Origin: an uncultured Gammaproteobacteria bacterium
GTDB lineage: Bacteria > Patescibacteriota > Microgenomatia > Levybacterales > GWA1-39-11
Length of the DNA: 64,000 nucleotides
Direction: 5' to 3'
Assembly: GCA_964651815.1 (NCBI GenBank)
Contig: CAZYWG010000011.1
Coordinates: forward strand, 1,056 to 65,055
Position numbers and translations under genes: made by a program. The notes beneath the pieces are model-generated. The model did not search any database. It had not been told where the DNA came from and worked only from the letters and a program-made list of their open reading frames with translations. How positions within the stretch are numbered: position 1 is the first letter of the stretch; every line of letters begins with the position of its first letter. This document shows, one piece after another, positions 1 to 10,593 of the stretch.

Positions 1-952
1 ATCAACTAATATTGCACTTTCTATCTCATTTGCTATTTTTTATATTGGGTGTCTAGCGACACTTATAATTGTAAACGATACTAAAAAAATAGTAGCCCAT
101 GCTCTATTACCGGTAATCTTTGGGATAGGTATTTTTCTTTGCATATACAGGATATTGTTGGTCTACTTTCCTCCAATAGTTCCTTTAAATGGATACCAAC
201 TGGTTTCTTCATTCTATGGGTCCCATAACCACCTTGGGGATTTTTTGATTCTTCCGCTCACAGCAATTTTTTATATCTTAATGAATAAGAATAATAAAAT
301 ACACCCTCTCATACTCTTATTATTATCAATATTTTTTGCACCTTACTTTCTTTTTTCATTTTCAAGGAGCGCATATTTTTCTGTTATCGTAACATTAATT
401 TTCATGTTTTATTATTTTGTAAAAAAAGGAAGAATAAGACTGATTGAATTCAGAACTTTACTTATGATTTTGGTTATATGTATTCTCACCTTATTTATGT
501 TTTCTGTTTCAATTTTCTCAAGTCAAAAAAATTTAGTTTCTGAAATTAATACTCATCTGGTTGAGAATAACAACCTTTCATATAAAGCTCCGTTTGGTGC
601 CAGGGGAGAATATGTAAGAGAAGCTATACTTGCAATTTTTTACAAACCCATTTTTGGTGTTGGTCCGGGAAATTTTATAGAAATTTCAAAAAAGTATAAT
701 CCTATTCAGGGACTTTGGGCAGAGTCTTCTCATAATCTATTCTTAAATATAATGGTTGAAGATGGTATTGCAGCTGGGTTGATACTTTTTATTATAATTG
801 TTGAGATCTTCAGGAAGTCAGAGAAGAACATTTATTTCTTTATGGCACTAGCCTTGCTTATAAATTTTCAGACGGATTACACTTTTAGAATATACTCACT
901 GTTCTTTTTATTTTTTGTTTTGTGTGGGTTGTGTCAACAAAAAGAAAGTTAG
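1..952 (+). CDS. O-antigen ligase (Wzy/WaaL-like) family membrane protein, 5'-partial. The frame is open back to the window start.
   Basis: Multi-TM protein with the motif ...GVGPGNF...AESSHNLFLNIMVEDGIAAG typical of the O-antigen ligase family. No in-frame stop between position 2 and the Met at 155. Confidence 0.55.
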   Translation, partial: STNIALSISFAIFYIGCLATLIIVNDTKKIVAHALLPVIFGIGIFLCIYRILLVYFPPIVPLNGYQLVSSFYGSHNHLGDFLILPLTAIFYILMNKNNKIHPLILLLLSIFFAPYFLFSFSRSAYFSVIVTLIFMFYYFVKKGRIRLIEFRTLLMILVICILTLFMFSVSIFSSQKNLVSEINTHLVENNNLSYKAPFGARGEYVREAILAIFYKPIFGVGPGNFIEISKKYNPIQGLWAESSHNLFLNIMVEDGIAAGLILFIIIVEIFRKSEKNIYFFMALALLINFQTDYTFRIYSLFFLFFVLCGLCQQKES

Positions 953-1772: not shown

Positions 1773-3617
1773 TTGGCGATTATTAAGCGTAGTAAAATTA
1801 ATATGGAGACAAATATTAGCGGAAAATTTAGTGAAGTTAAGAGAACTTTTATAGTTTCTGTAAGGCTTTTGAAAACTATTTGGAGCTTTGACAGTAAAAT
1901 TCTTGTATTTCAGTTTGTAATAACCGGCGCACAGTCACTAATACCCTTTATAAACGCATTTATCTACGCATTAATTATTGATCTTATTGTAAGAAACATT
2001 GGAAGACCATTCAACTCATCAAACCTAATTGTATTGCTCGGAGTGAGATTTTTAACTTTGCTTGTGCAATTTTCAATAAATTCTATTCAAAGTTATATAG
2101 ATCTTGTAACGTGGTCAAGACTCCCAATTTATTTATATCAGTTGATTTTAGGTAAAATTACAAACCTTGAGGTTGAATACTTTGAAAACCCAAAATTCCG
2201 TGATGCACTACAAAAAGTCCGTGAAAGTTATGCATGGATGCCATTAAATATGTATACGAATATTTTTGGGGTGATTCAAGCTTTAATCCAACTCGCAACG
2301 GCTTTTATATTATTATCTTTTTTAAACGTTTTTCTTGCAATAGGAATAATAGCTGCTGCAATGCCTTCTTTTTTAATCCAAATCAAATATTCAAAAACTC
2401 TTTGGGGCGTCTGGGATAAAAATTCACCTCATAAAAAAAGATTTTGGTATTTATCGGATCTAATTCAGCACAGGGAAGCTGTTAAAGAAATGAGAGTATT
2501 TGGGACTTCCAATAAATTCTTAAATGAGATATCTAGGATTCAAGAAAAATTTGCAAATGAAAATCTTGCTGTCGGGAAAAAAAGACTTAGGGATTCCTCT
2601 ATCTTAAGTTTTATAAGTTCAGTAATTTTTATTTTGATTGAGGGAACCATAGCATTTTTTACAATATTAGGCAAAATATCGCTAGGGGGGCTTTCATATT
2701 TCACATTTGTTGTTTGGAATTTTGAAGGCGGTGTGGCATCTTTTTTTAGCAGCGTATCAAAGACGTTCAATCAAAGTTTATACGTTGAAGACATTTTTAA
2801 AGTCCTAGACCTTCCGCAAAAACTACAAAAAGCTGAAAAACCTATTAAAATCAATACGGCAATTACTCCTAAAATTGAATTTAAAAATGTATCTTTTAAA
2901 TACCCGGGTTCAAAAAAGTATACGCTTAAAGATTTTTCCCTAACTATACATCCGGGTGAAAAAATAGCGTTTGTGGGCGAAAATGGTGCAGGGAAAACGA
3001 CAATTATAAAACTTCTTGCAAGGTTCTATGATGTCTCAAGCGGGGAAATATTAATTGATGGGATTAATATCAAAGAATTAGATCTTAACTCCTGGTACAA
3101 GACGATAGGTGCTATTTTCCAAGATTTTATAAAATATGAATATACATTAGCTGAAAATATCCATTTAGGCAAAATTTACGAGCCGTTTAACAAGTCAAAA
3201 ATAATATCCGCAGCAAAACTTTCTGGAACTGACAAAATCGCAGAAAAATTGGAAAAAGGTTATGATCAAATGCTTGGACTTACCTTTTCCGGAGGAACAG
3301 AATTATCTTTAGGTCAATGGCAAAAAGTTGCGCTAGGTAGGGCATTTTTACGCGATGCTCCAATTTTAATTTTAGATGAACCAACTGCCTCGATTGATGC
3401 AAAAGCTGAAAAAGAAATTTTTGATAAAGTTGAAAGATTGAGAGGAAATAAAACCGTTATAATAATTTCCCATAGGTTTTCGACTGTCAGAAATGCAGAC
3501 AAAATTTTTGTAATTAATAAGGGTAAAATTGCCGAAGAGGGAAATCATAAAGAATTGTTAGCAAATAACAAGATTTATGCCAAATTATTCAAAGTTCAAG
3601 CAGAAAAGTATCAATAA
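1773..3617 (+). CDS. ABC exporter, fused permease and ATPase (MsbA/ABCB-like). Candidate exporter of the adjacent RiPP.
   Basis: N-terminal 6-TM region. Walker A GENGAGKTT, signature-like FSGGTELSLGQWQK, Walker B ILILDEPTASID. Confidence 0.85.
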   Translation: MAIIKRSKINMETNISGKFSEVKRTFIVSVRLLKTIWSFDSKILVFQFVITGAQSLIPFINAFIYALIIDLIVRNIGRPFNSSNLIVLLGVRFLTLLVQFSINSIQSYIDLVTWSRLPIYLYQLILGKITNLEVEYFENPKFRDALQKVRESYAWMPLNMYTNIFGVIQALIQLATAFILLSFLNVFLAIGIIAAAMPSFLIQIKYSKTLWGVWDKNSPHKKRFWYLSDLIQHREAVKEMRVFGTSNKFLNEISRIQEKFANENLAVGKKRLRDSSILSFISSVIFILIEGTIAFFTILGKISLGGLSYFTFVVWNFEGGVASFFSSVSKTFNQSLYVEDIFKVLDLPQKLQKAEKPIKINTAITPKIEFKNVSFKYPGSKKYTLKDFSLTIHPGEKIAFVGENGAGKTTIIKLLARFYDVSSGEILIDGINIKELDLNSWYKTIGAIFQDFIKYEYTLAENIHLGKIYEPFNKSKIISAAKLSGTDKIAEKLEKGYDQMLGLTFSGGTELSLGQWQKVALGRAFLRDAPILILDEPTASIDAKAEKEIFDKVERLRGNKTVIIISHRFSTVRNADKIFVINKGKIAEEGNHKELLANNKIYAKLFKVQAEKYQ

Positions 3618-3724: not shown

Positions 3725-4531
3725 ATGAAAGAAATATATGTGGAAATTGGAGGTTTTGTTATAAGAATTATTCTTGGAAAGAAGACCCTGGATCCACACG
3801 TTTCTTATTTGATCAATAAACTTGAAATTGAACTATTAATATACCTTAGAGGTTTTATAGTACAGAACAAACGAAAAAGATTTGATTTTGAAATTGAGTT
3901 TGAATATATAAAGGAGCCCGGCGTATTGAGTTTACAAAACGAAGATAAGATTTATATACCAATTTTTCAGAAAGTTACTGATAAAAAATTCAAAACTTAC
4001 TATAATTTGAATACATCTCAACTCGAATTAATACTCAAGTATGCCCTTTTATCACTTTTAAAGAAAAATTCAGGCTTTGGAATTCACGCATCTGTTGCAA
4101 AAGTAAATGGCAAAGCATATCTTTTTTTGGGTGAAAGTGGAGCTGGAAAATCTACAATAGTTGAGCTTATTAAAGAAGTTTTTCCAACAATTAATGACGA
4201 TATGACTTTTATCAGAAAAATAAACAGTGAGTATTGCGTTTTTCAAACTCCATTTAGCGAGAAGCCTTGGTGGATAAACAAGAGTAAAAAATTCGTCAAA
4301 GTGAATAAAATTATCTTTATTCATAAATCACGCTCATCTGATAGCAATAAAATAAATGACAAAAAAATTATAGCTAAGAGGGTTTTAGGTCAAGTTATGG
4401 TTGCGCAACACTTAGATAGTTATATAATTAAAAATGTTACAAATTTTACAAACTTTATTCAAAATTTTTATGATTTAAATTTTGAGAAAGATGTTGATAA
4501 AACTATTAGTTTAGTATCAAAATTGAAATGA
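3725..4531 (+). CDS. HPr kinase C-terminal-domain-like P-loop protein (HprK-related kinase). Putative RiPP-tailoring kinase.
   Basis: P-loop LFLGESGAGKSTIVELIKE resembles the HprK C-domain Walker A. The stop overlaps the PqqD-like gene start by 4 nt (ATGA). Firmicute lasso-peptide clusters encode HprK homologues that phosphorylate a precursor Ser (established knowledge). Confidence 0.6.
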   Translation: MKEIYVEIGGFVIRIILGKKTLDPHVSYLINKLEIELLIYLRGFIVQNKRKRFDFEIEFEYIKEPGVLSLQNEDKIYIPIFQKVTDKKFKTYYNLNTSQLELILKYALLSLLKKNSGFGIHASVAKVNGKAYLFLGESGAGKSTIVELIKEVFPTINDDMTFIRKINSEYCVFQTPFSEKPWWINKSKKFVKVNKIIFIHKSRSSDSNKINDKKIIAKRVLGQVMVAQHLDSYIIKNVTNFTNFIQNFYDLNFEKDVDKTISLVSKLK

Positions 4532-4782
4532 AATATTTTCTTAAAAAGGGGTTTATTTTTCAAAAACATCATGAGATAACTAACATAATTGATGGAGATA
4601 AATCAATACTTCATTCTTTCAACGAGGTAGGGTCTTTTATATTTGAGCAGATAAGAAAAGGAGCTGACCATGTAAAAATTATCGAACGAATGACTAAGAA
4701 ATATAAAATAAGTAAAGAAGTTGCCGAAAAAGACTTAACTGAATTTATATCTAGCCTTAAGAAAAAACAAATAATTTCTTAG
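4528..4782 (+). CDS. PqqD-family protein (RiPP precursor recognition element, RRE, peptide chaperone).
   Basis: 84 aa, ...HSFNEVGSFIFEQIRKGADHVKIIERMTKKYKISKEVAEKDLTEFISSLKKKQII matches the PqqD-like wHTH pattern. Translationally coupled to the kinase-like gene. Confidence 0.7.
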   Translation: MKYFLKKGFIFQKHHEITNIIDGDKSILHSFNEVGSFIFEQIRKGADHVKIIERMTKKYKISKEVAEKDLTEFISSLKKKQIIS

Positions 4783-6015
4783 GCTTGCAAGTGATTTCCT
4801 AAACTGGTACCAAAGAACGAAGTAAATAACTTCCAGGTTTGTGAATATAAATAACTTTCTGATTTCTGATCTTGGAGAAAGTGCATATAATATTTTAAAT
4901 CTTTTCACACCACTAGCTACTCTATAGTCTTCATTAAAAATATTAGTGCCCACCAGATCTTTTTTTATTTCGTTCATAACATCCTTTTTAGGCTTAATAT
5001 GGTTTAAAAATTTGAGTGGCATATTAAATTGATAATACTTTTGAAGTAACAGAAGAACAGGATAGATAAAATTATTAATTTTAAACTCCTCAATAAGTTC
5101 GGCAAGATCATCATAGTTTATTTTTTCAGTTTTTAAAATCTTTACTAGGAGATCATATCTATATGTGCCTGTGAAGTTGTGGTGAAATAGATGTAGCATG
5201 AGATAAACAATCAAGTTTTCAGGAGACAAAATTTTGAAATCTTGATTCAAAACCCTAATAGAGCGGTGTTCAACTAACAATTTTTTTGTAAATTCAATTG
5301 TTAGTTGATTTTGGTATAAAGAGTTGAGGTTTCCTATCTGAGTAAGCAAAAATACAGCTTCTAAGTGTATATCTAGGTAAACTGGGATGTTATTAATTAT
5401 TTTATAAAAGGTTATCTCCATATCACGAGATTTTAGCTTTTTTTGAAGTTTAGAATAAGAAGTATCTGAGATATTAAATTCTAGTCTCTTGAGGATTCTA
5501 ATTACTTTATATAAATCTTTTTTATTGATCAAAATGTCGCAGTCAGAATATATCCTTTTTGCATGGTGACCTTCATAGAAAAGATGTAAGGGTAAACCCT
5601 TGAGAAAAACATACGCTATTTTTTCTTTCTCAAAAGTATTCTTTGTTTTTACTATCTCCTGAAAATATAAAGTAGATTGGAATAGATATATATCGTTAAT
5701 ATTTATTACTCGTTTTTGTTTGCCAACGATTCTTGTTACTTTTTCAACAATTCCTAAGATAGAAGATGGATAAACTTTACCATCTGAAGTCAAGTTATTA
5801 TCCCCACGAGTAATAACGTAGCTTAAATGTTTATAAATTATTCGGTGCGTGAAGATTTGCCCTTCTTTTTTGACTGAGATGATGTCATTTACTTTTAAAT
5901 TACGGAAGTTCTGTTTTTCTATACTTATGACATCTCTGTCAAGCAAAACAGGAAACATACTATTCCCGAAAGTTTTAATTCTCAGTTCTGTGCGAGTTTT
6001 TGTAGGATGCGACAC
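4735..6015 (-). CDS. Fusion protein. N-terminal S26/S24 (signal-peptidase/LexA-type) serine peptidase domain plus C-terminal nucleotidyltransferase-fold domain. Putative leader peptidase/tailoring enzyme.
   Basis: N-term GNSMFPVL ... ITRGDNNLTSDGKV resembles the SPase I/S24 Ser-Lys peptidase motifs (GxSMxP, GDNxxxSxDS). No TM segment. C-term region ...EGHHAKRIYSDCDILI... resembles a GS...DxD nucleotidyltransferase motif. Lies immediately upstream (25-nt gap) of the precursor gene. Confidence 0.55.
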   Translation of the reverse strand: MSHPTKTRTELRIKTFGNSMFPVLLDRDVISIEKQNFRNLKVNDIISVKKEGQIFTHRIIYKHLSYVITRGDNNLTSDGKVYPSSILGIVEKVTRIVGKQKRVININDIYLFQSTLYFQEIVKTKNTFEKEKIAYVFLKGLPLHLFYEGHHAKRIYSDCDILINKKDLYKVIRILKRLEFNISDTSYSKLQKKLKSRDMEITFYKIINNIPVYLDIHLEAVFLLTQIGNLNSLYQNQLTIEFTKKLLVEHRSIRVLNQDFKILSPENLIVYLMLHLFHHNFTGTYRYDLLVKILKTEKINYDDLAELIEEFKINNFIYPVLLLLQKYYQFNMPLKFLNHIKPKKDVMNEIKKDLVGTNIFNEDYRVASGVKRFKILYALSPRSEIRKLFIFTNLEVIYFVLWYQFRKSLASLRNYLFFLKARYKFS

Positions 6016-6040
6016 TTGCTAGATTTTAACACAAGAATAA

Positions 6041-6316
6041 CTATTGGCACCCACAGCTGTAGCATGATCCGTCACCTGCATCACATCCGCAGGGTGAACC
6101 ATTAGACGAAGAGCAATCCCCGCCTCCTGAGTTACAAGTTCCTCCCCCGCAAATATCACAAGTCGCACCTTGAGATGCGCATTCGCATGATGATTGGGCA
6201 AAGACTGCCGGGACAATTGAGTTACTGACTGAATTCAAAAACCGACTACTCATAAAAAAACTAAACTTAATCTTTTGGGATTTAACACTTGGTTTTTCGT
6301 ACGAATTTATGCTCAT
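6041..6316 (-). CDS. RiPP precursor peptide. Leader about 41 aa plus a Cys/Ser/Gly-rich 50-aa core (TOMM/LAP-type).
   Basis: Translation MSINSYEKPSVKSQKIKFSFFMSSRFLNSVSNSIVPAVFAQ-SSCECASQGATCDICGGGTCNSGGGDCSSSNGSPCGCDAGDGSCYSCGCQ. 11 Cys, 12 Ser and 13 Gly in the last 50 residues. Sits directly downstream of the SagB-like and YcaO genes. Start uncertain: an alternative Met lies 21 codons in, and no strong RBS is seen for either. Confidence 0.7.
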   Translation of the reverse strand: MSINSYEKPSVKSQKIKFSFFMSSRFLNSVSNSIVPAVFAQSSCECASQGATCDICGGGTCNSGGGDCSSSNGSPCGCDAGDGSCYSCGCQ

Positions 6317-6369
6317 TTCAATAAAGTATATGCTGAAAAAAACATCATGTCAATAAAGTTTACCATTTA

Positions 6370-7125
6370 CTATACTTCCCCTATTGCCATTGTATATATT
6401 ACAGATTCTTCCAAGACGTCTAACTCCAAGTGGTTGTTTATTACATCATCTACATATCCACCAATTGCACATGCTCCAATTTTCTGACTTACGGCGTTCA
6501 AGTAAAAGTTCTGTGCCATATGTCCGGCCTCCTCTAGCATTAGTCTATACCCTCTATCTCCATACTTCATTGTGTTTCTATTAAATACTGCAGATATAAA
6601 AATTAGGCCTCCTGTTTTTTTGATCCACGGGATATTTGTAATTTTTGGAAGTAGATCTTTTTTATTGAATTTAAACATCTTTTCAAAACTATTATTCTGC
6701 ACAAAATAGTGATAAGAAGCATTGTCAAGTTCACTTTTCAAACTCAAAAAATAAACCTCTAAAGGAAAGCGTGCTCCAGGGGATGGGTAAAAACGTCTTT
6801 CCGAAGGTGTGTTATTAGGTATTCCGGCACTATAATAAAAAAGGTTACTTAATTTTTTTAAGCTCAGTTTTTTATTTGAGAAGTCACGTACTGACCTTCT
6901 TGTATAAAGGGCATCTGAAAGTAGAACGTTGCTTGCGGAAGGTTTTGGTAATTTAATCTCACTAAATCTTCCATAGCTTTTGTAATAAATCTTCTTCCAT
7001 TCCTGCGGCCAATAAATGGTGGATGAAATTCGTCTCATTTTCTTAATTTTTGTAAAGTTATGGAACCTTTGAAATTCAGTGGTAAGCTTTCCTGTTAGAT
7101 GGTAAATTGGTTTATATTTTTTCAT
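6370..7125 (-). CDS. SagB-type (nitroreductase-family, FMN) azoline dehydrogenase.
   Basis: Nitroreductase hallmark ALYTRRSVRDF and C-terminal KIGACAIGGYVDDVINNHLELD. Start overlaps the YcaO stop by 4 nt. Confidence 0.75.
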   Translation of the reverse strand: MKKYKPIYHLTGKLTTEFQRFHNFTKIKKMRRISSTIYWPQEWKKIYYKSYGRFSEIKLPKPSASNVLLSDALYTRRSVRDFSNKKLSLKKLSNLFYYSAGIPNNTPSERRFYPSPGARFPLEVYFLSLKSELDNASYHYFVQNNSFEKMFKFNKKDLLPKITNIPWIKKTGGLIFISAVFNRNTMKYGDRGYRLMLEEAGHMAQNFYLNAVSQKIGACAIGGYVDDVINNHLELDVLEESVIYTMAIGEV

Positions 7126-8381
7126 AAAAATGGGTGAGGAATTGGATTCAAACCGTCAAATTTTTTTCCAAAAAAATTTGCAACTTTTTTTAGTCTTTCA
7201 ATATTTACAACTTTTTCCTTCTCATGCTCAATTAAATATAGGGGATTAAGTCCAGGTATCATTACATAATAAGAAAGAAAGTTTAGTTTTCTAAATTCGT
7301 CCACTGTGGAATCCACGTAGTACACTTTATAACCAAGTTTTTTTAATTTTTTAAGTACTTTAGCAAGTTCTGATTTAATTTTTAAGTTAAATTTTTGAGC
7401 TTGATAATCAACTCGGCGTCCTGCAATCAAAAATTCAATATTTTTTAGACTAGATGAAGAAATCCAATATTTTGCCCTATTTGGAAACAAACCATCAGCA
7501 GTTTTAAAGTCAAAAGAGATTTTACCTTGTATTAACATATTTTTTGTATATAGCCTAGTCATCAGTGTTTCGCCAGCAGAGGCTATTATTGCATCTACGC
7601 TTTTAAACCCTGCCTTTCCTCCTAGACTAATGGCGGGACCCAGACCAGTTCTATCAATTGCCACTGATAGAAAAGAAGGAATACCGAGATCAGTTGTAGC
7701 ATCTAAAACGTATAGATCAAGATTAAATTTATGATATAAGTCTAGAATATATTTAATTCTTTTGTCTTTTATAGCTGATAAGTTAACAATTGGAGGAGAG
7801 ATTTTGTTGAGGTATACTCCCATTAGGGAATCCCTTTCAATTAATTCATAAATACCATTTAACAGTGCCATTTCGTGTGATGCTCCACCTGCTGAACCAT
7901 TAGTATTATGTGGAAAATCAAGATGAGGTTCATTCTTTAACCTTTGGTAATTAAGGTAAACAAACTGTGCAGGAATGAGTTTATTTTTATTTGTAAAGAC
8001 TTCTACCCCCTTGACCCATCCAAACTTGCTTGATTTGACTTGTGGATCTTTTGAAAAATAGCTTAGGTTAAGGAAACTTTCATTATTTTTAGGAATTTTT
8101 TTTATGATGGATTTTCTTTTGAAACTATAATTACAAAATCGCTCCATTGCTTCCCAAATAGATTTCATCACCGCTGATTCCTCATCAAAATATGATACAC
8201 CAGACCCATGAAGGTCACTTGAATTGACCTTTCCATCAGAATACTTTTTATTTGTTTTAAAATTAGTGCTAAAACTTTTTTGTCTTGGCTCGTCGTTATA
8301 TTGTGTGTTTTTTTGTACTTTTGGCTCTAGACCCAAATCATAGAGTTGATCCAAAAGAGTTATTAATTGGCCTTTCTTCAT
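7122..8381 (-). CDS. YcaO-domain cyclodehydratase (TOMM D-protein-like), standalone with no fused E1-like domain.
   Basis: YcaO motifs SAVMKSIWEAMERF and TNGSAGGASHEMALLNGIYELIERDS. 419 aa. Confidence 0.8.
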   Translation of the reverse strand: MKKGQLITLLDQLYDLGLEPKVQKNTQYNDEPRQKSFSTNFKTNKKYSDGKVNSSDLHGSGVSYFDEESAVMKSIWEAMERFCNYSFKRKSIIKKIPKNNESFLNLSYFSKDPQVKSSKFGWVKGVEVFTNKNKLIPAQFVYLNYQRLKNEPHLDFPHNTNGSAGGASHEMALLNGIYELIERDSLMGVYLNKISPPIVNLSAIKDKRIKYILDLYHKFNLDLYVLDATTDLGIPSFLSVAIDRTGLGPAISLGGKAGFKSVDAIIASAGETLMTRLYTKNMLIQGKISFDFKTADGLFPNRAKYWISSSSLKNIEFLIAGRRVDYQAQKFNLKIKSELAKVLKKLKKLGYKVYYVDSTVDEFRKLNFLSYYVMIPGLNPLYLIEHEKEKVVNIERLKKVANFFGKKFDGLNPIPHPFL

Positions 8382-8560
8382 AGATTGGAGTATATCTTAT
8401 TATTCAACTCTGAAAAAGTAAAGGATAGGATGGAATTGACTATTTCTTGAAGATTACTTAGTTAAAATCATTAGTGAATAGTTTCAAAGATTAATTTTTG
8501 TTGAACCAAAGGTGAGGTTTCTGAATGCTAAGCTGTTTTATTAATACTTTATCAAAAACA

Positions 8561-9127
8561 CTAAAGAATTAAAACAGCACCGCCTACAATCATGAATATA
8601 ACTGAAATGAAACCAACTGTAAGTGTAGACGTAACAGAACCTGTAGGTTTTATTGTTGGCTGTGGGGTTGCAGGAGGTATTGTAGGGGCCGTCGTTGAGG
8701 TAGGTGAAACACCTGCTTGGGTTTGGCAAAGAAGTTGGAAAGACCCAACAGGTCCTGCTGTTCCACAAGAATTAACTGCTGAAACGTCACATTTATAAGT
8801 CTTTCCTTGTGTAATAGAAAAGGAAATATTTGTTGTTGCGGCCGGGACTTGTTGATTGTATATTGTTGTGCTAGTTTCAAGTTCTGTTACAACTACATTA
8901 TAATTTGCTGCTGAGGCGACAGTCCCCCAAGTACAACCGGCTTGTGTAAAATTACATTGGGTCCCTACACAGTTTGGATAAACAACTTCAACATTTTGAA
9001 CAGCATCAGGAGTTGTACATGCTGGAGTTTGGGCAAGAGCTTTAGGCGAATAAAATGATAAAGCGATCAGAAATCCCCCAATAAAAACCAGAATGGGCAA
9101 AGATAATTTAAATATTTTCCTCAGCAT
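8561..9127 (-). CDS. Secreted/surface protein. Signal peptide, Cys-containing beta-rich domain, Pro/Thr-rich linker, C-terminal TM anchor.
   Basis: N-term MLRKIFKLSLPILVFIGGFLIALSFYSPKALAQ. 8 Cys in the mature domain. PTIPPATPQPTIKPT linker. C-terminal hydrophobic VGFISVIFMIVGGAVLIL. Confidence 0.45.
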   Translation of the reverse strand: MLRKIFKLSLPILVFIGGFLIALSFYSPKALAQTPACTTPDAVQNVEVVYPNCVGTQCNFTQAGCTWGTVASAANYNVVVTELETSTTIYNQQVPAATTNISFSITQGKTYKCDVSAVNSCGTAGPVGSFQLLCQTQAGVSPTSTTAPTIPPATPQPTIKPTGSVTSTLTVGFISVIFMIVGGAVLIL

Positions 9128-9360
9128 CTATTTCTGCCTATCTCTATCATAGAACAATTTTTCACGGTACGTCAAGCCCCCGTAAGACGTTTACAATTTA
9201 TTATATATTGTTGATCACGTCCAAACTTGGATTGACTATTTTTGATACACTTGTTTCGTGTTTTATTCGGTTTACTTTCGTATTAATTTCGTATAGTATT
9301 ACTTAGGTTGGTTTATTAATTAATTTTCAATTTGAATTTTAAAATTAAAAATTTCAAATT

Positions 9361-10593
9361 ATGATGCGTACTATCCTTCACGTTGATTTTGACTCTTTTT
9401 TTGCTTCATGCGAACAGCATTTCAATCCAAATCTCCGTGGAAAGCCAATTGGAGTGACGGCGGAAAATGGGCGCAATGCAGTTATTGCTGCTTCACGCGA
9501 GGCAAAACGTCTTGGTGTTAAAAGCCCAAATACCACTTGGGAGGCAAAAAGAATTTGCCCGGAGATTCAATTTGTAAAAGCAGATTTTGAGAGATATCTC
9601 GAAATAACAAAAAAGTTATTACAAATAGCATGTCGTTATTCTCCGGTTGTTGAATTATTTTCGCTCGACGAAGTATTTATTGATTTAACACCAGTTAAAA
9701 ATCTTTACCCCACTACTCTATATGTTGTGGAAGATTTTAAAAAGCGGCTCCGGGAAGAAATTGGTACCGCAATCACGGTTTCTGTAGGCTCGTCATACAA
9801 CAAGCTTTTAGCAAAGCTCGCAACAAGCCTTAATAAGCCTGATGGATATGGTGAAATAGATACAGCCAATAAAGAAAAAGTTTTTTATCAAATAAAGCTC
9901 ACTGAAATTATGGGAATTGGCGCAAGATTCGAAAGGCGCTTAAATATGCTTGGTATATATACCTTCAAACAACTTGAAGAATACCCAATTTATTTATTAA
10001 AAGCGGAATTTGGCAATGTAGCTTCTCAAAATTTGAAAGCGCTTTCTATGGGGATAGATGATTCACCCGTTGTCTCATATTTGGAAGAAGTTGAGGCAAA
10101 ATCTGTAGGACGTAATTATTGCCTTCCTGAAAATACATATGACAAAGAAAAAAATTTGAAGACTATTTATGAGTTATGTGAAGAGATTGCAATTAAATTA
10201 AGGAGGTTAAAAATGAAAACAAGGACAGTCGGACTTTTTTTGCATGGAAATGAGTCTGCAGGGGCCAGAAAAACTATAACTCGTTATACAAATACAGCAG
10301 GCGACATTTTTGAAATTTGTTCTGCTTTTTTTAAAAAATGGGACTTGGAATATGTCAGGCAAGTGAGCGTTTGGGCAGGGAATTTGATTGAAGAAAAATA
10401 TACTACTATTTCTATGTTTGATGACCCTAAAAAAGATATAGTCCAGTCTACAATTGACAAAATTAATGACCGCTTTGGGCATCATACTATCAGAAATGGA
10501 TATTTGGTGGATTCTGCTCAACTTCATACAAAACCTAACGGTTTCATGGCTGATAGGTGGCAGAGAAAAGAAATCAGTAACATCCGTACTTAA
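9361..10593 (+). CDS. dinB: Y-family DNA polymerase (DNA polymerase IV, DinB-like).
   Basis: N-terminal ILHVDFDSFFASCEQ motif (the HVDxDxFFAS hallmark of Y-family polymerases). About 410 aa. Confidence 0.8.
   Translation: MMRTILHVDFDSFFASCEQHFNPNLRGKPIGVTAENGRNAVIAASREAKRLGVKSPNTTWEAKRICPEIQFVKADFERYLEITKKLLQIACRYSPVVELFSLDEVFIDLTPVKNLYPTTLYVVEDFKKRLREEIGTAITVSVGSSYNKLLAKLATSLNKPDGYGEIDTANKEKVFYQIKLTEIMGIGARFERRLNMLGIYTFKQLEEYPIYLLKAEFGNVASQNLKALSMGIDDSPVVSYLEEVEAKSVGRNYCLPENTYDKEKNLKTIYELCEEIAIKLRRLKMKTRTVGLFLHGNESAGARKTITRYTNTAGDIFEICSAFFKKWDLEYVRQVSVWAGNLIEEKYTTISMFDDPKKDIVQSTIDKINDRFGHHTIRNGYLVDSAQLHTKPNGFMADRWQRKEISNIRT

Follow-up and report, generated by a model that had tools for sequence, protein, structure and literature searches.

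Gene content of the locus

We evaluated a 64,000-nucleotide stretch of DNA from an uncultured bacterium (contig CAZYWG010000011.1 of assembly GCA_964651815.1; G+C 36%), hereafter the window, around a small minus-strand open reading frame (ORF) at 6041..6316 that appears to encode the precursor of a peptide that is made by ribosomes and modified after translation (RiPP). An original prediction, made from the letters of the window, had proposed such a precursor next to a YcaO gene. Several neighbouring genes resemble those for the linear polyphosphorylated peptides (LPPs) of Bacillota (Popov et al., Nat Commun, May 2026; PMC13381572), whose precursor LppA is served by the RiPP recognition element (RRE) LppB, the HprK-like kinase LppK, the SipW-type peptidase LppS, the nucleoside triphosphate (NTP) transferase LppN and the MsbA-like pump LppD (PMC13381572). 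The genes and domains that carry our argument are the following:

6041..6316, minus strand: precursor peptide gene (LppA-like), 91 amino acids (aa), ATG at 6316, stop TAG at 6043-6041
6044..6196, minus strand: predicted core, residues 41-91 of the precursor (51 aa including Gln41), preceded by the predicted leader, residues 1-40
4735..6015, minus strand: fusion protein of 426 aa, S26-like N-terminus plus NTP_transf_5, GTG start at 6015
5701..6015, minus strand: S26B (SipW/Sec11-type) signal-peptidase-like domain of the fusion, lacking a transmembrane anchor, predicted catalytic residues Ser19, His57 and Asp78
5032..5679, minus strand: NTP_transf_5 nucleotidyltransferase domain of the fusion (LppN/PsmN-like), PF14907 at E 1.8e-19
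4528..4782, plus strand: PqqD-family RRE (LppB / lasso B1-like), PF05402
3725..4531, plus strand: HprK-like / ScmC-family P-loop kinase (LppK/BsfK-like), weak HPr-kinase and ScmC matches
1773..3617, plus strand: MsbA-like ATP-binding cassette (ABC) exporter lacking a C39 peptidase domain (LppD-like), ABC_membrane and ABC_tran domains only
6370..7125, minus strand: SagB-type flavin mononucleotide (FMN) dehydrogenase, TIGR03605 at 108 bits against a cut-off of 78.4, K-Y...RGYR motif conserved
7122..8381, minus strand: YcaO cyclodehydratase, 419 aa, PF02624 at E 1.5e-40

The translated product of ORF 6041..6316 is MSINSYEKPSVKSQKIKFSFFMSSRFLNSVSNSIVPAVFAQSSCECASQGATCDICGGGTCNSGGGDCSSSNGSPCGCDAGDGSCYSCGCQ, exactly the sequence predicted, and no model in Pfam or NCBIfam matches it. 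Its leader closes with ...IVPAVFA-Q, such that the claimed Val at -3 and Ala at -1 are present, whereas the leader string given in the original prediction wrongly ran on to Gln41, beyond the proposed cut. Past Gln41, the remaining 50 residues comprise 11 Cys, 10 Ser, 12 Gly and 4 Asp; the predicted counts of Cys and Asp thus stand, while those of 12 Ser and 13 Gly, and a Cys/Ser/Gly share of 72%, have to be lowered (33/50, or 66%). The Cys share is 22%, with numerous C-x-C and C-x-x-C spacings. The statement that nearly every Cys follows a small residue was too strong, as the 11 core Cys are preceded by S, E, T, I, T, D, P, G, S, S and G, and only 7 of these residues are small (Ser, Thr or Gly), the others being Glu, Ile, Asp and Pro. 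Past the precursor stop, 25 nucleotides (nt) lead to the GTG start at 6015 of the minus-strand 3' neighbour, whose N-terminus, as had been foreseen, is S26-like; it holds an intact Ser/His/Asp triad.

A precursor family with conserved leaders and hypervariable cores

ORF 6041..6316 is a genuine, conserved gene. Over the first 45 codons, the differences from its homologue in locus L002 (57% identical) are synonymous in 14 codons and non-synonymous in 16, with nucleotide changes distributed over the codon positions as 10/8/23, third position foremost, and the remaining two frames of the precursor strand are interrupted by stops in both the window and L002. This third-position bias, the stops in the other frames and the 47 distinct homologous small ORFs that we recovered together make the ORF more than a chance reading frame.

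These homologues came from several sources. A word-indexed search with the precursor returned only its self-match, and a metagenome scan with a 4-sequence leader alignment yielded nothing that was confirmed. YcaO homologues led to loci with homologous small ORFs (L002, L003 and L007, later L008-L015), an exhaustive phmmer search gave nine more and a leader profile another eight, and the total of 47 distinct sequences was reached after a metagenome scan. Contigs of JGI/IMG, ENA and GenBank metagenomes, among them samples of Hainich groundwater, supplied the metagenome loci, and the hosts are uncultured Microgenomates-type bacteria in which the neighbours of the small ORF are the same enzymes. 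Evaluating the family, we found that conservation is limited to the N-terminal ~42 residues and that the core is hypervariable, ranging from 3 to more than 160 residues in length and from 0 to 40 in Cys count, some members having just 0-1 Cys. This is the pairing of conserved leader and variable core that had been anticipated.

Two kinds of unusual members were seen. In 7 of the 47 precursors a Hint (PT-HINT / intein-like) domain directly follows a short core (L003 13317-13952; L024 4837-5397; L063 559-1125, minus strand; L069 5849-6901; L072 886-1470, minus strand; L086 628-1281; and P0066), with Pfam PT-HINT scores of 38-65 bits (cut-off 27.7) and a domain that begins with Cys. Since the domain ends in L003 and P0066 with ...VHN followed by Lys or Ile, not by Cys, Ser or Thr, its sequence points to self-cleavage, or to activation of the core at the C-terminus, and not to splicing; a literature search for natural Hint-containing RiPP precursors found no report. 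A further precursor, P0067, has no junction motif and lies on a 936-bp contig.

Defining partners of the family

We assessed which genes accompany the precursor. The YcaO, SagB, precursor, kinase, fusion and PqqD genes occur together in 9-10 of the 10 loci anchored on YcaO or precursor, and the homologous small ORF is there in 9 of 10 YcaO-anchored loci, such that the objection raised in advance, that related genomes might have no such ORF next to YcaO, does not hold. A metagenome scan with the fusion protein added 80 further loci, in which PqqD and/or the kinase are usually present where flanking DNA suffices; many metagenome loci are short, and absences are meaningful in the longer ones only. 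YcaO and SagB were found in about one third of the loci, while the RRE, kinase, fusion and this leader family occur without them in the other two thirds or so. Because the YcaO/SagB pair is present in just that third, what defines the leader family is its association with RRE, kinase and peptidase-nucleotidyltransferase fusion, and YcaO/SagB is an add-on; the predicted adjacency of precursor and YcaO is real. Elsewhere among the related loci we found genes for radical-SAM enzymes and sulfatases, Bac_transf, Wzy_C and GT4 genes, and two unknown families, and the RRE-kinase-peptidase platform seems to be combined with differing core-modifying enzymes. Related loci were traced to Candidatus Levybacteria, and remoter YcaO relatives bear the names Roizmanbacteria and Moranbacteria.

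A peptidase-nucleotidyltransferase fusion related to LppS

The S26 domain matched NCBIfam TIGR02228 (archaeal-type signal peptidase I) at E 2.4e-9, under the model cut-off, and its best solved matches were SEC11A/C, with Ser19, His57 and Asp78 aligning to the catalytic residues of human SEC11A. A profile of the fusion family aligned to LppS with an hhalign probability of 96.3% (E 1.5e-9, 120 columns), and there the same three residues fall on S29, H68 and D93. LppS removes the LppA leader only when LppB presents it, and its variants S29A, H68A and D93A are inactive (PMC13381572). Among 86 homologues the triad is near-invariant (78/79, 79/80 and 82/82 of those covering each position), and in the nucleotidyltransferase domain D158-x-D160 and H217 are each present in 85/85 homologues. 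The window cassette encodes no other protease. Given the homology to LppS, an experimentally characterised leader peptidase, removal of the precursor leader by the S26 domain, which the original prediction had put forward as an inference, is well supported by sequence comparison.

The start of the fusion gene matters here, as the automatic gene call begins at Met20 (the Met of G-N-S-M; 407 aa in the window, 395 aa in L010 12741-12789) and would remove the invariant K14-T-x-G-x-S19. No canonical start other than GTG 6015 would consequently preserve the active site, and the true start, judged from the sequence, must be an upstream non-ATG codon (in the window GTG 6015; 5956-6015). A 427-aa ORF of locus L013 that was tested as a diverged S26-NTP-transferase protein proved not to be one.

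For the second domain, precedents exist in lasso peptides, where PsmN-type nucleotidyltransferases add hexoses to phospho-Ser in pseudomycoidin and where a nucleotidyltransferase is fused to leader peptidase B2 in some clusters (PMC8498205).

Recognition element, kinase and exporter

The plus-strand RRE gene and the minus-strand fusion gene overlap at the 3' end of the latter. The best solved matches of its PqqD family were lasso-type, TfuB1 (5.9e-8) and TbiB1 (1.2e-6), then PbaB1 and LppB, with true PqqD at 0.92, and the family aligned to LppB with an hhalign probability of 92.4% (E 5e-7). Its invariant residues N32 and D69 align to LppB N33 and D70, which fix leader Pro-13 and Tyr-16 (PMC13381572).

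In the kinase, H121, G136-x-S-x-A-G-K-S-T144 and D158-D159 are invariant across 9 homologues, and H...GxSxAGKST...DD is the motif of BsfK, a lasso-precursor kinase that phosphorylates core Ser3 with the help of an RRE (PMC10368454). A search of the PDB with the kinase profile returned mostly 27-residue Walker-A matches to ABC transporters, with broader coverage only from HPr kinase and PEPCK. For the exporter, MsbA models were the best NCBIfam matches.

A possibly bipartite leader and its junction with the core

Three elements of the precursor were delimited (a slash marks a cut here and below):

6284..6301, minus strand: leader motif Y6-E-K-P9-S-V11 (YxxPx[ILV]), predicted binding site of the PqqD-type RRE
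6227..6244, minus strand: second leader element R25-F-L-N-S-V30 (consensus R-F-[LFI]-D-S), candidate YcaO/SagB recognition element
6191..6205, minus strand: junction V38-F39-A40/Q41-S42, predicted cut site of the S26 domain, with Ser42 as candidate phosphorylation site

Tyr6 and Pro9 are present in every full-length family member, with I, L, V or F at position 11, and the YxxPx[ILV] motif is the one bound by the lasso B1 and LppB RREs (PMC10368454, PMC13381572). Since both residues are invariant and the RRE keeps the residues that hold that Tyr and Pro, the likely RRE-binding element, by analogy, is Y6-x-x-P9-x-V11, and not KIKFSFF as such, to which the original prediction had assigned this role. 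The K-I-K-F-S-F-F stretch directly follows the YxxP motif (family pattern K-[IV]-x-hydrophobic-[SN]-x-F); it may lengthen the beta-strand and, by the same analogy, would not be the primary RRE determinant.

The second element tracks YcaO. The Asp at the fourth position of R-F-x-D-S is found in 16 of 18 precursors of YcaO-containing loci versus 2 of 11 where YcaO is missing from a locus of 9 kb or more (Fisher p = 2.5e-4, with no correction for relatedness), and the window precursor has Asn28 where the consensus has Asp. This association suggests that the leader is bipartite, with YxxP for the RRE and R-F-x-D-S linked with YcaO. In the window F26...V30 also fits what we take to be the FxxxB leader pattern (Mitchell et al. 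2009).

At the junction, a hydrophobic-hydrophobic-Ala pattern recurs in 40 of 44 members, mostly 34-37 residues past the Tyr (35 in the window leader), and close relatives keep [VA]-[FY]-A-Q, a positive outcome of the proposed check on the AVFA-Q junction. Ser, Thr or Tyr occupies one of the core positions +1 to +3 in 40/44 members against an expected 59%, a comparison in which shared ancestry is uncorrected. LppS cuts F-E-T/A-Q-S and LppK phosphorylates Ser3 (PMC13381572). In LppA F(-3)-E-T(-1)/A-Q-S the residue at -3 is hydrophobic and that at -1 small, and in functional terms V(-3)-F-A(-1)/Q-S aligns best with it. By analogy, then, the leader is likely cut at VFA/Q or within one residue of it.

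The strongest competitor keeps the same system and moves the cut one residue earlier (V-F/A-Q-S), such that the core would start A-Q-S with a phospho-Ser at +3. It draws on the Q-S dipeptide shared with the Paenibacillus LppA core, which begins A-Q-S-W-N-K with Ser3 phosphorylated, on a Rossellomorea homologue that begins S-Q-S (PMC13381572), on BsfK, which likewise modifies Ser3 (PMC10368454), and on A-x-[S/T/Y] being the commonest pattern after two hydrophobic residues in the family. With such a cut, nonetheless, position -1 would be filled by Phe, Tyr or Leu, although S26 enzymes accept small residues there and LppA carries Thr, and Ala, the most conserved junction residue (40/44), serves better as the -1 determinant together with a hydrophobic -3 that matches LppA F-3. 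We consider the earlier cut rather unlikely, while giving it more weight than any other alternative, and tentatively retain the cut after Ala40.

YcaO and SagB as probable partners of the precursor

The nearest solved structures to the YcaO protein were the azoline-forming TruD, MusD and LynD. About 65 residues precede its YcaO domain, and its conserved, Pro-rich C-terminus reads ...P-H-P-F-L, presumably the PxPxP motif of azoline-forming YcaOs, a resemblance that we treat as a lead. Azoline-forming YcaOs normally require an E1-like or Ocin-ThiF-like partner.

We also considered whether two independent systems might simply lie side by side, with the peptide serving as an LPP-type substrate only and YcaO/SagB acting elsewhere or being inactive. 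The two thirds of loci that keep the RRE, kinase, fusion and leader-family precursors without YcaO/SagB are consistent with this, as are the absent E1-like partner and the YcaO score under the SagD cut-off (see below). Against it, the window precursor lies between SagB and the fusion gene and the window holds no second precursor-like ORF; a precursor directly follows SagB or YcaO in at least six loci (the window, L002, L012, L013, L014 and L015); and in L013 the precursor stays with YcaO-SagB although no S26-NTP-transferase gene was found within 13.7 kb. Further, the R-F-x-D-S element tracks YcaO, and every core with at least 10 Cys came from a locus with YcaO or from a contig whose context is unknown, whereas cores of YcaO-less loci have at most 6 Cys. 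Taken together, we regard two separate systems as improbable, and a precursor shared by both enzyme sets as the better account.

Two further observations concern these loci. L014 (5085-9225 and 12999-15994) carries two YcaO-SagB-precursor sets on one contig, whose differing cores each have a single Cys, together with two kinase genes and, in the examined stretch, one S26-NTP-transferase gene and one PqqD gene. In several YcaO loci a DCC1-like thiol-disulfide oxidoreductase domain lies within large membrane proteins (L003 10289-11998, L010 10876-12630, L014 7197-8942), and some core Cys in loci of this type may form disulfides and not thiazoles; the window has no such gene.

Comparison with known systems

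To place the cassette, we compared it with four described systems, for which the LppS, LppB and LppA sequences were taken from Supplementary Data 1 of PMC13381572. The closest are the LPP clusters, where LppA carries the leader motif YxxPxVLxHQxIxFET/xxS with Tyr at -16, LppK adds several phosphates to core Ser3, and the clusters often lie within capsular-polysaccharide loci (PMC13381572). The window encodes all five LPP functions, with peptidase and NTP transferase fused: a triad-bearing SipW/archaeal-type signal-peptidase-like protein co-located with a discrete RRE; in that lasso-type RRE, the Asn and Asp that fix leader Pro and Tyr; an HprK-like kinase with H...GxxGxGKS...DD; and an LppN-type NTP transferase together with an exporter resembling MsbA. 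Its precursor has the N-terminal YxxPx[VIL], a variable C-terminus and Gln-Ser near the core start, there is no lasso cyclase, and polysaccharide genes adjoin (Wzy_C in the window; Bac_transf and GT4 in related loci). It differs in its host, which we take to be a Microgenomates-type bacterium of the candidate phyla radiation (CPR), whereas the LPP family was called restricted to Bacillota (PMC13381572), in having peptidase and NTP transferase as one protein, in a leader ~13 residues longer with the extra R-F-x-D-S element, in the junction V-F-A/Q-S in place of F-E-T/A-Q-S, in a Cys-rich core where the LppA core has no Cys, and in the YcaO and SagB genes of its operon. The LPP paper makes no mention of YcaO, SagB, radical SAM, Hint domains or Patescibacteria (PMC13381572). 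Listed in its Supplementary Data 1, and undiscussed in the paper, is a Microgenomates protein (OGV92686.1) in which an ABC-type ATPase is fused to a SipW-like peptidase domain beside an RRE, a further way in which this peptidase is fused in CPR bacteria.

Thiazole/oxazole-modified microcins and linear azol(in)e-containing peptides (microcin B17, streptolysin S, plantazolicin) share the YcaO gene beside a SagB-type dehydrogenase and an adjoining Cys/Ser/Thr-rich precursor, the Gly/Ser/Cys-rich core of the window being reminiscent of microcin B17 and the F-x-x-x-V stretch of its leader (F26-V30) being of the FxxxB type. In contrast to them, the window has neither an E1-like C protein nor an Ocin-ThiF-like partner, its sole RRE is of the lasso/LPP PqqD type, its peptidase is S26-type and not TldD/E, CAAX-type or C39, and a kinase and a nucleotidyltransferase are additionally present. 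Phosphorylated and phosphoglycosylated lasso peptides (paeninodin, pseudomycoidin, Bsf; PMC8498205, PMC10368454) share the B1-type RRE, the YxxPxL motif, the HprK-like kinase and the PF14907-type nucleotidyltransferase, and the nucleotidyltransferase-peptidase fusion parallels the nucleotidyltransferase-B2 fusion of some lasso clusters. The window leader, unlike theirs, has no Thr or Ile at -2, and neither a macrolactam cyclase (Asn-synthetase-like) nor a B2 cysteine protease was found in the cluster, its flanks or the mapped related loci; the product cannot be a lasso peptide. SynChlorMet systems (TIGR04248/TIGR04249) likewise pair a ScmC-family P-loop protein with a PqqD-family protein, and YcaO-less relatives of the window carry radical-SAM enzymes, yet the ScmC/ScmD model matches fall far under their cut-offs (29 bits versus 125) and the window has no radical-SAM enzyme. 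Literature searches on PF14907, SynChlorMet/ScmC and CPR YcaO RiPPs returned nothing relevant, and no description of the cassette was found in them.

A probable LPP-type cluster with an added azole-forming pair

From these comparisons we interpret ORF 6041..6316, with a probability of roughly 0.75, as the RiPP precursor of a CPR relative of the LPP clusters that has an added YcaO/SagB azole-forming pair. What the window suggests to be new is that an LPP-type precursor and cluster combine peptidase-nucleotidyltransferase fusion, longer and bipartite leader, Cys-rich core and azole-forming pair.

Several points weigh against this interpretation. On the azole-forming side, no ThiF/E1-like domain was found in any cluster or flank ORF, and YcaO reached 171 bits against TIGR03604 (the SagD family), under the cut-off of 219. 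On the LPP side, the full LppA leader consensus is not matched (Tyr -35 here versus -16 in LppA), and a PDB search with the leader profile gave chance matches only and did not detect the LppA leader chain, such that homology of the precursor to LppA rests on short motifs and context. At the junction, 7 of 44 members have Tyr or Phe at -3, an unusual residue there for type I signal peptidases, and a cut after Ala puts the conserved Ser at +2, versus +3 in LppA. In the heterologous system of the LPP paper LppN was inactive (PMC13381572), a single-sequence AlphaFold2 model of the fusion protein reached a predicted local distance difference test score (pLDDT) of 34.8 and was discarded as unusable, and phosphorylation, azole formation and cut site are all things that we infer.

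Two explanations outside RiPP biosynthesis by the cassette fare worse than those weighed above. If the N-terminal 40 residues were a Sec signal peptide, the peptide would be exported unmodified and cut by a housekeeping signal peptidase. The Lys-rich N-terminus, Pro at -5 and the -3/-1 rule satisfied by Val and Ala are consistent with this, and RiPPs with true Sec signal peptides exist, such as bufferins (PMC11626156). The leader nevertheless lacks a hydrophobic core: an h-region of 7-15 residues is absent, and its best 12-residue Kyte-Doolittle mean is 1.33 versus 2.98 for the true signal peptide encoded by the neighbour at 8561-9127. Arg25, Asp/Asn28 and position-specific motifs are moreover conserved in the leaders of the 47 homologues, unlike in Sec signals, and neither a signal peptide nor a membrane anchor was detected in the cluster enzymes, all of which makes a Sec signal very improbable. 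A small Cys-rich metal-binding or structural protein sitting in the operon by chance, as the 22% Cys and many C-x-C and C-x-x-C spacings might suggest, is scarcely credible, given that the Cys-rich part is the non-conserved part, that some members have 0-1 Cys, and that conservation is confined to the N-terminal 42 residues in strict synteny with RiPP enzymes.

Under the interpretation that we favour, an LPP-type system with an azole-forming add-on, maturation could proceed as follows. The PqqD-type RRE (4528-4782) would bind the leader at Y6-x-x-P9-x-V11, as the conserved leader and RRE residues and the solved homologous complexes suggest, and the HprK-like kinase (3725-4531), going by LppK and BsfK, would phosphorylate a hydroxyl residue at the core start, most likely Ser42 and possibly several times. 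YcaO and SagB, from their family membership, would convert part of the 11 Cys, and perhaps of the Ser, to thiazol(in)es and oxazol(in)es, and the correlation described above raises the possibility that they use the second leader element R25-F-L-N-S. The soluble S26B domain, with its substrate presented by the RRE, would cut after Ala40 (V-F-A/Q-S), plus or minus one residue, in keeping with its LppS homology; the fused nucleotidyltransferase domain may decorate the phosphate, in parallel with the hexose addition to phospho-Ser by PsmN; and the MsbA-like ABC protein (1773-3617) would export the product.

Should YcaO work with a PqqD-type RRE alone, the rule that azoline-forming YcaOs require an E1-like/ThiF-like partner would need revision. 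The first description of a RiPP leader peptidase resembling signal peptidases dates from 2026, when it was thought confined to Bacillota, and the window and ~90 related loci extend this machinery to ultra-small uncultured bacteria, in a CPR version that is differently fused and coupled to azole-forming enzymes. The bipartite leader could serve as a model for two enzyme sets sharing one substrate, and the leader signature offers a means of finding such precursors, which current Pfam and NCBIfam models do not recognise. More tentatively, and as a generalization that we hold to be possible yet doubtful, CPR bacteria might hold a large undescribed LPP branch in which one lasso/LPP-type platform of RRE, kinase and fused peptidase-nucleotidyltransferase serves interchangeable core modifiers (YcaO/SagB guided by R-F-x-D-S with no E1-like partner, radical-SAM enzymes, or a built-in Hint domain). 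On that generalization, the product of the window would be a phosphorylated, possibly glycan-linked, thiazole-rich peptide, and its YcaO the first cyclodehydratase of that family fed by a discrete lasso-type RRE.

Additional features of the window and related loci

Two further features lie in the window near the cassette:

6325..6353, minus strand: sigma-70-like promoter TTGACA-17-TATACT, an 11/12 consensus match that ends 8 nt before the precursor ATG
2..952, plus strand: Wzy_C (O-antigen-ligase-like) membrane protein extending past the window start, PF04932, with a tblastn match over 2..949 to its L002 homologue

The promoter candidate is the best sigma-70-like match within 4400-9400, as judged by consensus matching alone, and L002 has identical hexamers with the same 8-nt spacing to the ATG (about 7350-7403). 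No Shine-Dalgarno sequence is visible between this match and the precursor ATG, and the precursor may own a promoter that gives a nearly leaderless mRNA.

The RRE, kinase and peptidase genes repeatedly have polysaccharide genes as neighbours, namely Wzy_C, a Bac_transf phosphoglycosyl transferase, GT4 and an unknown 279-aa membrane protein (the window, L008, L012, L018, L020, L046, L055, L064, L074, L092 and others). This context, as in Bacillota LPP clusters, hints at a glycosylated or glycan-linked peptide. Radical-SAM neighbours were seen in YcaO-less loci (L037 8251-9663; L041, L049 and L090; L026/L028 9139-10146), and one of these enzymes has 470 aa and a Cys-rich SPASM-like C-terminus.

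Directly upstream of YcaO on the minus strand (8561-9127) is a gene for a 188-aa protein that matches no family and is conserved in L002 (4702-5280). It has a clear signal peptide (...KALA/Q), a domain that contains Cys, a linker rich in Pro and Thr and, at the C-terminus, a membrane anchor, and could be an immunity or surface protein, or unrelated. In other loci, though not in the window, an unknown membrane-anchored protein of ~167 aa (U167) is often encoded immediately upstream of the precursor, overlapping its start by 4 nt (L007, L008, L010, L012, L015, L016, L020, L026-L028 and L092).

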